From NCBI GenBank assembly GCA_951406725.2, contig OX597841.1, positions 15,376,001 to 15,440,000 on the forward strand: 64,000 nt of DNA, read 5' to 3'. Source of the DNA: Octopus vulgaris (taxonomy: Eukaryota). Made by a program: the position numbers and the translations under genes. Shown here in pieces: positions 143 through 61,528 of this stretch; position 1 is the first letter of the stretch, and each line of letters opens with the position of its first letter. The notes below the pieces were generated by a model. That model saw nothing but the letters and a program-made list of their open reading frames with translations, ran no database searches and was not told where the DNA came from.

Positions 143-235
143 TAATTGGCTGATGAGCACTAAGCATCTTAAATCTGTTGTAATACTTACAACTTTTAAT
201 AAAATGATGTAGTGCGAAACGATCGTACCAAATTA
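143..235 (+). ncRNA. Type I hammerhead ribozyme motif with extended stem II (Penelope-like/retrozyme type)
   Basis: taattgg-CTGATGA(150-156)-gcacta...tagtgc-GAAAC(216-220)-gatc-GTA(225-227)-ccaaatta. Stem II gcacta/tagtgc is capped by an internal hairpin gttgtaa/ttacaac. Stem III is the palindrome ACGATCGT. Stem I taattgg/ccaaatta has one bulge. Confidence 0.8.
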
Positions 236-564
236 CCAGAGTCATTCTTGTTGCTTATTTTGATTATAACCACCCCACAAATTTTTATGGATAACACCAT
301 ACAAAATTCTGGTGCATCTAAATTAAGTACCATATTCATTCGAATCTAAATTTTTGCTGAACTTATATATATATATATATATATATATATATATATATAA
401 ATTAGAAAAAACCCCACCTTTTATCAATTCAAAATGAACAATTAAATTACACCATCTAGAAAATTACATATAATAGAAATATTAAAATCAATATAGCAAT
501 AAATTACCAATAATTAAGTAAATTGCAAAAAAATAATAAAAACGTATGTAATTGGTAGAATAAC

Positions 565-660
565 AACACGTGTTTCGTGACTGTATTTACGAAATGATTA
601 TAGTAAAAAAATTAAAAGTAGTAGTAAAATCACTTCGATATAAATATAGCCACTCATCAG
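565..660 (-). ncRNA. Type I hammerhead ribozyme motif; 5' arm of stem I replaced by an adjacent SINE
   Basis: Minus strand reads CTGATGA-gtggctatattta...taaatacagtcac-GAAAC-acgt-GTT. Stem II is 13 bp with one mismatch and one G-U pair; stem III is the palindrome AACACGTGTT. SINE family A sequence begins directly 5' of CTGATGA. Confidence 0.7.
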
Positions 661-754
661 AAGGCACTTGCCCAAGGTGCCACGCAGTGGGACAGAACCC
701 GGAACCATGTGATTGGTAAGCAAGCTACTTACCACGCAGCCACTCCTACGCCTA
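661..754 (-). mobile_element. SINE family A, 5' tRNA-like head fragment
   Basis: Reverse complement of ggcgtaggagtggctgcgtggtaagtagcttgcttacc...ccttgggcaagtgcc, matching the full copy at 2287. Confidence 0.85.
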
Positions 755-1244
755 TACATACATATGTATGTATGTATGTATGTATGTATGTATAACACGT
801 CAGCTCAAAGTTTACTCGTCCTGTCGAAAAGACGCCTGTCTGTGACGTCCTGTTTTCGTTATTATTATTATCATTATTGTTTTTACGTATTTTTGTATTC
901 TTATTCGTGTAACATCGTCCGTTTTTCCGTCCTTGTTTTGTATACATTCGAGGCTTTCTTCCAAGGAATCTAATGCGCTTGGCTTAGATTTTCCTTTGGG
1001 GCTGGCCAGATCGGAGCAATCTCAAGATTAATCAGCCAAAATTGCGAGGATGATCCGGTTCTTGATTGAAGATTGAAGGCTTCGAATGTCCCGTCCGTGT
1101 TTTTTGTATCGTCTTCTAAATGTTTTGCGTTCTTGTCCCAGTTTGTATTTACACACACACACACACACACACACACACACACACACACACACACACACAC
1201 ACACACATACACACACACATTTATATTTTAAAAAAATTTTATTT

Positions 1245-1576
1245 TATCTAGTTTCAGCTCACGAGCTGTGGCCATGCTGGGGCACCGCCATTTGGTGTTG
1301 CTACATTATACTTCAGGAATGCTTTTTAGCAACTGCCATTTGGTGCATGAGAGAGTTCGATGCAGCTGCCCTCATCTGCACCTCCTGCCGTGAAGTTGGT
1401 TCATCCGGGACACCTGACAGGAAGAGATCCAGTCCTACTTTAAAGACATACACATCCACCCCATGGAGGTCCCTCAGGTTATTCGGGAGGATATTGAAGA
1501 GCTGTGGGCCTCTGAAGCCCAGGCTATCACAGTATCTTGTCCTACATCTTGATGGCAAATTTGGAGCTCTTGGCAT
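1245..1576 (-). mobile_element. CR1-group LINE 3' end (ORF2 C-terminus plus tail), 5'-truncated
   Basis: ORF 1313-1576 SLGFRGPQLFNILP...FKVGLDLFLSGVPDEP, then tail ggcggtgccccagcatggccacagctcgtgagctgaaacta. Same family as 56480 and 58930. Confidence 0.8.
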
Positions 1577-1677
1577 ATATATTTTCTTTTTTTATAGAAT
1601 TAGCGATAAGATCACTTTAACGTTATTATCAAGTGGCCGGTATGAAATAAAAACGTTTTAGGTAATATGTTATACTA

Positions 1678-57904: not shown

Positions 57905-58918
57905 TTCTGCTAGAAATAGCAGCCAAATCTCTCTCAAATCACACCTTACTGTCTTATCTATGCATATGCGTATGTATGAGCCAATGAGGGAGACCTCCAC
58001 ATGGTAGTTAGACCTGGTAGAAATAGCAGCCAAATATCTCTCAAATCACACCCTACTGTCTTATCTATGCATATGTGTGTGTATGAGCCAATGAGGGAGA
58101 CCTCCACATGGTTGTTAGACCTGGTAGAAATAGCAGCCAAATCTCTCTCAAATCACACCCTACTCTCTTATCTATGTATATATGTATGTATGAGCCAATG
58201 AGGGAGACCTCCACATGGTTGTTAGACCTGGTAGAAATAGCAGCCAAATCTCTCTCAAATCACACCCTACTCTCTTATCTATGCATATGTGTATGTATGA
58301 GCCAATGAGGGAGACCTCCACATGGTTGTTAGACCTGGTAGAAATAGCAGCCAAATCTCTCTCAAATCACACCTTACTCTCTTATCTATGCATATGTGTA
58401 TGTATGAGCCAATGAGGGAGACCTCCACATGGTTGTTAGACCTGGTAGAAATAGCAGCCAAATCTCCCTCAAATCACACCCTACTGTCTTATCTATGCAT
58501 ATGTGTATGTATGAACCAATGAGGGAGACCTCCACATGGTTGTTAGACCTGGTAGAAATAGCAGCCAAATCTCCCTCAAATCACACCTTACTCTCTTATC
58601 TATGCATATGTGTGTATATGAGCCAATGAGGGAGACCTCCACATGGTTGTTAGACCTGGTAGAAATAGCAGCCAAATCTCCCTCAAATCACACCTTACTC
58701 TCTTATCTATGCATATGTGTGTGTATGAGCCAATGAGGGAGACCTCCACATGGTTGTTAGACCTGGTAGAAATAGCAGCCAAATCTCCCTCAAATCACAC
58801 CTTACTGTCTTATCTATGCATATGTGTATGTATGAGTCAATGAGGGAGACCGCTACGTGGTTGTTAGACTGCTAGAAAGTACAGTCAAATCTCACTCTAA
58901 TCACTCCCTATAATGTCT
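57905..58918. repeat. 107-bp tandem satellite, 9 full units plus a diverged partial
   Basis: tagaaatagcagccaaatc recurs at 57911, 58018, 58125 and onward with period 107; the predicted ORFs repeat with the same period. Confidence 0.95.
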
Positions 58919-58929
58919 ATATACATATA

Positions 58930-59876
58930 GTCTCGCAGAAAATACAGAACCCCAGCGATGTTGCACACCTGCAGCAGGAGTTGGACTCAATTTACAGATG
59001 GGCTGAGGCTAATAATATGCAGTTTAATGCTGGAAAATTCCAAGCCCTGCGCTACCAGCGCCCAACACTGAAGATAAAACTTACAGGGTACATTGACCAA
59101 CAGGGGATTATAATCTCAGAGCCTAAATCAGTGCGGGACCTGAGTATCGACATGAGTGATGACACCTTTTTCCAAGTGCACATTACCAGGGTGGCGACAA
59201 AGTTCAGGCGACTGGCTGCATAGATCCCGAGAACCTTCAGAACCAGTGAGAAAGAAATCATGATGGTCCTCTGGAGGATATTCGTCCTTAGCCGCCTGGA
59301 TTACTGCTCCACACTATAGTCACCCCACAGCGGACCTTGAAGCAATCCAGAGAAGATTCACAAAGAAGATCGTCTCTTTGCAACAGCTCAGCTACTGGGA
59401 AAGGTTGAAACAGTTAAGACTCTACTCCCTGGAGAGAAGGCAGGAGAGGAATGCAGTAATATACATCTGGAAGATCCTGGAAGGGATTGTGCCAAATTTT
59501 GGCATTGAAAGCTACACCAATGCTAGAACGGGTCGACACTGCACAGTGTCAAAGATCCCAGCAATACCATCGTGTTTCAGGATCAGTTACTGCAACGGGC
59601 TGGGTTTCAGGGGCTCACAGCTTTTTAATATTCTCCCAAAGATCCTGACGGACCTAAACAAAGTGGATGTAGGTGTTTTCAAACCAAAAACTGGATCTCT
59701 TCTTGTCTAGAGTACCAGGCGAACCTACCTCGCGACAGGAGGTGCAAATGAGGGTAGCCACATGAAACTCCCTAATTCACCGAATGCTACACATCAGAGA
59801 AGGATCTCAATATAATCAGTGTAGCAAAACGGTGCTGCCCCAGCTTGGCCACAGCTTCGAGCTGAAACTAATAAAA
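58930..59876 (+). mobile_element. CR1-group LINE, about 950-bp 3' fragment (end of RT to tail), with stops and frameshifts
   Basis: LQQELDSIYRWAEANNMQFNAGKFQ...VRDL...SRLDYCS...QRRFTKKI...LSYWERLKQLRLYSLERRQER...; tail ccccagcttggccacagcttcgagctgaaacta. Confidence 0.88.
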
Positions 59877-59969
59877 TATATACACACACGCACATACACA
59901 CACATACACACACACACACACACAGGCACTCACACACACATATAAATATATTCATATATATATTCATAT

Positions 59970-60400
59970 ACAGGAGTGGCTGTGTGGTAAGTAGCTTGCT
60001 TACCAACCACATGGTTTCAGGATGAGTCCCACTGCGTGGCACCTTGGGCAAGTGTCTTCTACTATAGTCTCGGGCCGACCAAAGCCTTGTGAGTGGATTT
60101 GGTAGACGGAAACTGAAAGAATCCCATCGTATATATATATATATATGTGTGTGTGTGTGTGTGTGTGTGTTTGTGCGTGTGTTTTTGTCTCCTCACCAGC
60201 ACTTGACAACCGATGTTGGTGTGTTTACGTCCCCATAACGTAGCGGTTCGACAAAACAGACCGACAGAATAAGTATACCAGGCTTACAAAGAATAAGTTT
60301 CCTGGGATCGATTTGTTCGACTAAAATGGTGGTGCTCCAGCATGGCCGAAGTCAAAAATGCCTGAAACAAGTAAAAAAAGAAAGAATAAAAGAATAAAAG
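59970..60400 (+). mobile_element. SINE family A, full length
   Basis: Matches 2287-2698 from head to tail. Confidence 0.9.
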
Positions 60401-61457
60401 AAGATAAGCAACATCACTGGTACTTAGAGAAGGGAGTAGGATGAGGTGCTAAATATCTTTAGTGCTTAAAGAGAGAGAGAGGGAGAGAGAAGGAAATAGA
60501 GAGAGGGGAGGGAAATAGAAAGCGAGTGAAGGTGGGAGAGGGAAAGCAGAGAGAGAGAGAAGAGTTGAAAATCAGACATCATTTTAAACTTGATACTTGG
60601 TGCTAAAATTTGCCAGATGCACTTGGATACGTCAGAGAGGTTTAAAGAAAGTTATAACCTCCACCCACTCACTTTCCCTGCTATCCCAAAACTCGCTATT
60701 CCTTACTTATTTGCTTCCTTACAATAATATCCGTTCATTCGCTTTCCTTTTGCAACCCCGCCACCAACCGCATCCCCCACCATCTAACCTCGTCCTCGAC
60801 TCTGTAGCCCTTATCTTCTTCCATTTCTTACGTCTCTCTCTCTCTCTCTCTCTCCCCCTCCTTTTTAATCTTCCCGAACCTTAAATTTTCGTTTTTCCTC
60901 CGTTTACTTCATTGCTTCCCTCTTTCGCTCGTTCGTTCGTTCGTTCCTTCGTTCCTTCGTTCCTTCCTTACCACCAACAACAACACCAATACCACCACCT
61001 TCACAACTACCGCTACCACCACCACCACCACCACCACCACCACCACCAGTATATCCATTTCTCTCTCTCTTCTTAACTGTGCCATATGCATATGTGTGTG
61101 TATATAAATAAATATACATGTAGATGTGTGTGTGTGTGCGTTATATATATATATATATATATATAGAGAGAGAGAGAGAGAGAGAGATAGATAGATAGAT
61201 ATAGATAGATAGATAGATAGATAGATAGATAGATAGATAGATAGATAGATAGATAGATAGATAGATAGATAGATAGATAGATAGATAGATAGATAGATAG
61301 ATAGATAGATAGATAGATAGATTCGAGAAGATTCAGCTCGGGATTGTATTTACTGCCGACTGAAACTGCGCTTGCGCGCTGAATTTTGAGAATTTATAAC
61401 ATATAATGATGGGACACGTGTTATCTTGTCTCTGAATTATAAGTTAGTTATTGAGGC

Positions 61458-61528
61458 CGGTTACTGATGAGAATTCGCCTGGCAGATAATCTTATTTGCT
61501 AAAGAAATTCGAAACCATGGTATAACCG
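61458..61528 (+). ncRNA. Canonical type I hammerhead ribozyme motif (best preserved)
   Basis: cggtta-CTGATGA(61464-61470)-gaatt...aattc-GAAAC(61511-61515)-catg-GTA(61520-61522)-taaccg. Stem I is a perfect 6 bp; stem II is 5 bp, extended by tggcagataa/ttatttgcta; stem III is the palindrome ACCATGGT. Confidence 0.9.

Follow-up and report, generated by a model that had tools for sequence, protein, structure and literature searches.

Hammerhead motifs in a window of the Octopus vulgaris genome as the probable 3' ends of truncated Penelope-like and retrozyme-like repeats

The stretch considered here, 64 kb of the Octopus vulgaris genome (C28:15376001-15440000; the surrounding genome comprises 2.8 Gb in 227 contigs) and hereafter called the window, is AT-rich in base composition, abounds in microsatellites and carries 15 hammerhead ribozyme motifs in total, about one per 4 kb. 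An earlier note, made by a model from the letters of the sequence, had described 14 such sites at a density of roughly one per 5 kb. Twelve of these belong to multi-copy families, designated here by letters, and they include the motifs that had seemed degenerate at 34945, 56104, 56976 and 56288-56420. The canonical core (CUGANGA and GAAA..UH) with stems I-III is found in families A, C (two motifs), G and B and, in minimal form, in D; one core position deviates in D2, K and part of E.

At the left edge lies a short inverted fragment end of family A (1..12, minus strand), which begins just left of the window. It is followed on the plus strand by the 5'-truncated 3' end of a Hydra-type Penelope-like element (PLE) of the same family (17..363), which has the long (tail) end and then (TA)n, and whose hammerhead at 146-231 has a predicted cut after 227. 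A repeat end of family F (400..660, minus; core 654-660, predicted cut after 565), with no linked open reading frame (ORF), accounts for the core without a stem I arm reported at 565-660: the 5' arm of stem I has been replaced by an abutting fragment of a short interspersed nuclear element (SINE), and relatives have TAAC/GTTA there. Family C is present as one inverted insertion, with a long arm including the tail (4281..4604, minus; hammerhead 4482-4566) and a short arm (4669..4828, plus; hammerhead 4703-4787). A short end of the majority subfamily of family E (4972..5050, plus) has its hammerhead at 4985-5022. In this motif the core and stems I and III are intact, but stem II is only 2 bp long and 10.1/11.1 are A.A, as is usual for the subfamily. 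Of five type I cores described as complete, four stand (146-231, 4482-4566, 4703-4787 and 61458-61528), and that at 4981-5027 is non-canonical. The inventory had also missed an inverted pair of family K, with hammerheads at 8460..8536 (minus; left arm, 8261-8575) and 8767..8843 (plus; right arm, 8728-9041), each with a U3.G8 core in a permuted unit of about 480 nt. Unlike other K copies, the two arms of this pair (8261-9041) share a foreign fragment and a (CAT)n run beyond the family sequence (96.5% over 315 nt).

Further right, an old end of family H (34939..35060, plus; core 34945-34951; about 80% identity to its relatives, no linked ORF) has a partly decayed stem II. Family G, a young Hydra-type PLE, is represented by a truncated body with a microsatellite-rich 3' untranslated region (UTR) and the short end (39772..40850, minus). 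Its hammerhead at 39789-39839 (minus; predicted cut after 39795), previously called degenerate, has every part of a complete motif, its one flaw being a U.U where stem II begins; only the 68-nt tail is inverted, joined at the truncation point (40848..40915, plus). At 41056..41067 (minus) there is a 3' half-site that consists of GAAA, a palindrome and UA and lacks a 5' core; it has no relative among the fetched loci and stays unplaced. A family D end with no linked ORF (51490..51699, minus) contains, where a motif had been noted at 51592, a minimal hammerhead (51593-51628) that passes the descriptor used below and has a canonical core and an ACGU palindrome. The related family D2 has two ends on the minus strand. 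The first (55994..56209; minimal hammerhead at about 56107-56140) combines A6U, a family trait, with U4C, peculiar to this copy; the second (56875..57041; about 56979-57012) has A6U and has lost U16.1. Close to the first D2 end lies an inverted insertion of family E, with a long arm (56215..56349, minus) whose hammerhead is truncated and decayed and a short arm (56352..56420, plus) with a U4C hammerhead at 56352-56391. Finally, family B is present as a near-complete, permuted 492-nt retrozyme-like monomer (61321..61767, plus; hammerhead 61458-61528, predicted cut after 61522). The view that the motifs come from unrelated families was overstated: a single insertion accounts for both C motifs, those at 4989 and 56357 belong to one family, and D and D2 are related.

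Matches to a strict type I descriptor lie at 146-231(+), 4482-4566(-), 4703-4787(+) and 61458-61528(+), and relaxing it for a bulge after A9 or a 10.1/11.1 mismatch adds 39833(-) and 51624(-). These six motifs compare with a mean of 0.01-0.1 under three dinucleotide shuffle schemes, with global and block shuffles, and six were reached in none of 100 shuffles. A looser descriptor gave 9 in the window against 0.16-0.30 in shuffles. In 331,200 bases flanking other loci, 21 motifs were found against 0-1 in 20 shuffles, a biased density in that some flanks contain partner arms of the queried families; the palindromic stem III remarked on at the outset recurs in perfect form in 14 of these 21. Stem I provides a non-circular test, since the motifs were picked without regard to it, on their core, stem II and stem III: its median is at least 4 bp in 17 of 22 clusters, against 0.76 clusters (maximum 6) with the arms permuted. 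The shuffles and the stem I pairing refute, for the 15 motifs, an origin as chance matches in AT-rich repetitive DNA, an explanation that now has next to no probability overall. It holds for the reported motif at 53677, whose sole genome match is itself, and the half-site at 41056 also speaks for it. A loose genome-wide pattern gave erratic strand counts and was not taken as a count.

Outside the window the families are numerous. A first look gave candidates, which are not copy numbers, for A (2529), B (1448), C (1164), D (1798), F (2436), G (892), H (156), D2 (1467) and K (948); exact matches to short patterns number 2,185 for D, 5,566 for E and 1,905 for a further family, J. The copies are ragged on their 5' side and stop at fixed points on their 3' side, where most of them pass into (TA)n. 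Family J (L325-L336, L355) has a minimal hammerhead absent from the window, is dense near the start of contig C1 and has a median stem I of 0 in the pairing test. The density of intact motifs in the window might be read as a sign that the host has co-opted some copies for cutting transcripts of its own here. Nothing direct speaks for this, the window copies diverge from their families as other copies do and several are damaged, which leaves co-option a very improbable explanation.

No PLE ORF was found in the 64-kb window, as the earlier note had stated for Penelope reverse transcriptase (RT) and GIY-YIG coding sequence. The ORFs that it proposed to look for are present elsewhere in the genome, collinear with and upstream of the hammerheads of families A, C, E, G and D2. 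A search with an endonuclease fragment of family A returned 30 loci, 27 of which contain the A hammerhead. Units in which an ORF lies between two hammerheads, as in the pseudo-long terminal repeat (pLTR)-ORF-pLTR arrangement, measure 3.47 kb for A (L134), 3.24 kb for C (L121) and 5,193 nt for G (L247, at C1:68814500-68823500). For family E the C-terminus of the endonuclease ends about 1.1 kb upstream of the hammerhead in 6 of 20 loci, and two of the eight stretches fetched for D2 (L351, L353) have an RT/endonuclease ORF upstream of the hammerhead; a third stretch, L357, has the ORF, with a match just beyond its edge. The PLE hallmarks of partially tandem pLTRs, an inverted 5'-truncated copy and a tail at one end are evident at L134, L121 and L247 and in the pairs of long and short ends described below. 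The alternative that every family lacks a coding parent and is a non-autonomous retrozyme or SINE-like repeat draws on the lack of a PLE ORF in the window, on the ORF-less B and K and on the unlinked D, F and H; the collinear ORFs refute it for A, C, E, G and D2, a 680-amino-acid open frame at L296 is contrary to it, and it is accordingly rated most improbable. The description of the window's repeats as non-autonomous or truncated ends is correct in that both occur, most fragments being truncated copies of coding elements.

The ORFs of A, C, G and E have DKT and YRDD, no CCHH, and a C-terminal CxxC..E..CxH. An RW motif with I, L or R as the third residue is seen in A, C and G, the N-terminus lying outside the E fragments; a CxCX5C linker is present in A and G, absent from C and beyond the E fragments seen. 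The (TA)n insertion and canonical hammerhead of the Hydra clade are found as well. The D2 ORF has DKG, YIDD, a CX4CxxC linker and the CCHH pair, that is, the Neptune marks (DKG, CX2-5CxxC linker, CCHH), which A, C, E and G lack. Judged by motifs rather than by a tree, and with published sequences compared by eye, A, C, E and G fit the Hydra clade and D2 fits Neptune, as these clades are defined in PMC8557442. A search for homologues brought up no named clade. A placement of A, C and G in Neptune was considered and ruled out by those published definitions and the ORF motifs. Long Asn-rich inserts lie between RT and endonuclease in the A and C ORFs (L128, L131, L134, L122), that of family A resembling an in-frame (AAT)n expansion. 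Two further elements were seen in flanks: a PLE with a long Neptune-type ORF and Pfam RVT_1 and GIY-YIG matches at L251:5252-7570(-), and another Hydra-like endonuclease at L130:2518-3700(-).

Family G is very young, 40 of 40 scored matches to a 116-nt query being 100% identical. In each of the 11 copies measured its 3' UTR is 2.4-3.3 kb long, and short-period repeats make up 57-72% of it. The window segment 4890-4944 is 76% like part of this UTR, which suggests that another repeat was taken up into the UTR. Two haplotypes of the family (L247; L292, L294 and L296) can be told apart by a run of C between RT and endonuclease, which has the frame-shifted length in 116 exact matches and 7-9 bases in 43, the two patterns differing slightly. 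They also differ in a linked residue, and contigs from four public runs have mainly the in-frame form. The difference may reflect a defective sublineage that is copied in trans, or an assembly error.

The ends of copies bear on how the elements move. All copies end downstream of the predicted cut, at a distance of 20-215 nt, and the ends are bimodal: +41 and +136 in A, +57 and +215 in C, +23 and +96 in G, and +43 and +112 in E. The tails thus bounded are 70-160 nt long. When two copies lie back to back, one has the long and the other the short end (18 of 18 in C, 16 of 17 rows in G, 10 of 10 rows in E and 13 of 13 in A, the last two counts with the reservations given below).

Families B and K are of a different kind. 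A head-to-tail dimer of B (L299) has a period of 492, 33% GC and a type I hammerhead in each unit; none of its ORFs exceeds 65 amino acids. Family K, weakly similar to B and with a mostly UUGANGA-type core (U3.G8), repeats on the same strand with a period of 475-482 at 4 of 18 loci, which are partial tandems; no two-hammerhead dimer was seen in these 18. Both families are likely ORF-less, permuted, retrozyme-like units of 480-492 nt.

Among the hammerheads counted genome-wide, that of D2 is the most abundant. Its pattern has 15,252 exact matches with U at position 6 and 565 with another base. Counted by eye, the first 100 of the 565 have 71 C, 19 A and 10 G, the mix expected from mutation of U; N7 among the first 100 rows is U in 43, A in 25, C in 20 and G in 12. 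When copies were gathered by their downstream flank alone (49 of 50 used; 11 of the loci had been retrieved with the window copy as query), U6 was present in 47. In these 49 copies the other motif columns are 90-100% fixed, the only free positions being N7 and H17, and H17 is A in 29 and U in 19, with one gap, and never G; many flank columns, unlike the motif columns, are split by sublineage. Variation confined to N7 and H17 is the pattern of a hammerhead under selection, and D2 is likely a new natural hammerhead variant. A natural A6C hammerhead is impaired in Mg2+ and active in Mn2+ (PMC3088659, PMC7151607). No report of a natural A6U was found in the literature searched, outside which lie Lunse et al. 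2017 and supplement file 1 of PMC4209133, either of which could hold one. It is conceivable, although the odds are somewhat against it, that D2 is an unreported A6U variant still selected as a ribozyme, which would cleave only under a special condition (as a dimer, with an element protein or with another metal), keep its template whole and in this way have spread to more than 15,000 copies.

Alternatively, the hammerhead fold may be kept as a structural signal for the element protein, for binding or for positioning the RT start, with cleavage minor or lost in several families. The most amplified families have core changes: A6U in D2, with its 15,252 copies against 565, U4C or A.A at 10.1/11.1 in E, and U3.G8 in K. 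All copy ends lie downstream of the predicted cut, hammerhead mutants of the PAc element still insert in vitro (PMC11167929), and A6C is strongly impaired in Mg2+ (PMC7151607). However, D2 varies only at N7 and H17, with H17 A or U in 48 of 49, as expected if the cleavage chemistry matters, and canonical cores are retained in A, C, G, D, F and B. This alternative is doubtful, if a serious contender.

Several observations weigh against a reading of the repeats as ribozyme-bearing PLEs and their dependants. The Rfam search proposed earlier gave no matches at gathering score in the window and eight loci, the best score being 17.7 bits for Hammerhead_1 at 145-233, against a gathering score of 34. 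(A whole-window Rfam search at E 10 was dominated by microsatellite microRNA matches and was discarded.) All three stems form in only one of seven monomer folds, that of family G, which fits cleavage as a dimer or with assistance (PMC4209133, PMC6765202). Only one B dimer was found among 75 exact core matches. The pairing of long with short ends in E (10 of 10 rows) includes one locus listed three times, and that in A (13 of 13) came from a query biased to long arms. In the flanks examined no ORF is linked to D, F or H, same-strand D pairs have none inside, and a single upstream RT and GIY-YIG ORF was likewise not found for B and K. Pfam and Protein Data Bank (PDB) searches of the Hydra-type ORFs gave nothing useful, Pfam failing to recognize them; a profile of the G-type proteins does match a Pfam RVT_1/GIY-YIG-positive element with a probability of 98.3. 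The resting of clade assignments on motifs belongs here too.

On balance, it is very probable that the hammerheads of the window are the 3' ends of truncated repeats in microsatellites, that five of the families are PLEs with RT/GIY-YIG genes elsewhere in the genome and that two more are likely retrozymes, which have no gene of their own and are copied by PLEs, the ribozymes likely cutting slowly, as dimers or with help from a protein, after or apart from copying. A mechanism can be proposed by analogy with PAc, whose protein cuts AT-rich DNA on both strands and extends each of them, whose cDNA begins at two internal RNA sites bounding the tail, and whose hammerhead requires protein for cleavage, insertion proceeding without cleavage (PMC11167929). 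The element protein would nick both target strands and prime two cDNAs at two internal starts on the RNA, and the truncated cDNAs would join back to back to give inverted arms or a lone inverted tail. Because all ends lie 20-215 nt past the hammerhead cut, the RNA template would be uncut, or religated, at its hammerhead during copying. For B and K, tandem hammerheads would release a monomer of 480-490 nt, which may circularise and then be reverse-transcribed in trans.

Other repeats of the window can be mentioned briefly. The GAAACGUU sites at 38484 and 54647 are SINE-like by eye, and 30616-31297 holds a 184-nt SINE-like unit in 3.7 tandem copies. A tandem array of units of about 120 nt was seen by eye at 57930-58880. 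The segments 58940-59870 and 61990-62620 look like fragments of long interspersed nuclear elements, the latter being highly repeated in a public run.

With regard to the role of PLE hammerheads, the families described here form a natural series (canonical, A6U, U4C, U3.G8 and broken 10.1-11.1) that, with its copy numbers, makes the importance of cleavage directly testable. Four short exact patterns give more than 25,000 matches that the Rfam cut-off misses in the loci tested, and cephalopod ribozyme counts are thus likely far too low. Family G brings kilobases of TA/TG repeats into TA targets and is a possible contributor to the microsatellite load of the octopus.

A hammerhead on PLEs in octopus is a known system, which explains most of the observation. 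The suggestion that such families were undescribed in cephalopods does not hold: the supplement of PMC8557442 lists Hydra-1_Obim and its hammerhead for Octopus bimaculoides, and 235 Hammerhead_1 annotations are given for the giant squid (PMC6962438). A paper on Octopus vulgaris repeats reports 31 recently active PLE families (PMC13282606), and neither 'ribozyme' nor 'hammerhead' occurs in its main text; no paper devoted to cephalopod hammerheads or retrozymes was found in the literature searched.

As described for the Hydra clade (Craig et al. 2021, PMC8557442), A, C, E and G have DKT, YRDD, no CCHH and the C-terminal CxxC..E..CxH, and the families here share the RW-type N-terminal motif (A, C, G), the CxCX5C linker (A, G), the (TA)n insertion and the canonical hammerhead. 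The coral Hydra-2_Amil hammerhead has, by eye, stem I and stem III in common with the E hammerhead at 4985-5022. Unlike the published clade members, which include one family listed for Octopus, there are at least four Hydra families here, none of which carries the Hydra-1_Obim hammerhead sequence. Their units are 3.2-5.2 kb long rather than under 3 kb and their tails 70-160 nt rather than 30-40; C is without linker cysteines, A and C have Asn-rich inserts, and G has a microsatellite-rich UTR.

Neptune resembles the D2 ORF in DKG, the CX4CxxC linker and the CCHH cysteine pair. The minimal hammerheads described for PLEs (PMC4209133, Neptune) are like those of D and D2 in the extra base after A9, in G10.1-C11.1, in an ACGU palindrome in place of stem III and in occurring mostly as solo copies; the consensus of the metazoan ones is CUGANGAH, with a core covariation U3-A8, whereas D2 has U6. 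In its substitution at core position 6, D2 is like the natural A6C hammerhead of phage Bcep176 (PMC3088659, PMC7151607), but the change is A6U, in a minimal motif, and fixed across more than 15,000 copies. The PAc Poseidon element (PMC11167929) shares the two end points 3' of the hammerhead that bound the tail and the AT-rich targets; the clades here are different, the tails longer and the evidence genomic only. Like the non-LTR (long terminal repeat) retrozymes described in PMC7229834 and 10.64898/2026.07.22.740005, B is made up of head-to-tail units that lack ORFs, are low in GC and carry one type I hammerhead each. B and K differ from these retrozymes in length (480-492 nt against about 170-400), in being mostly monomers with PLE-style inversions and in being known from genomic DNA alone, and K also in its U3.G8 core. 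What is new here, then, are several Hydra families beyond the published one, the two retrozyme-like units, the length of the tails and a minimal hammerhead that has A6U and is very abundant, together with the inverted insertions that pair a long with a short end and the young family G with its 2.4-3.3 kb microsatellite-rich 3' UTR.

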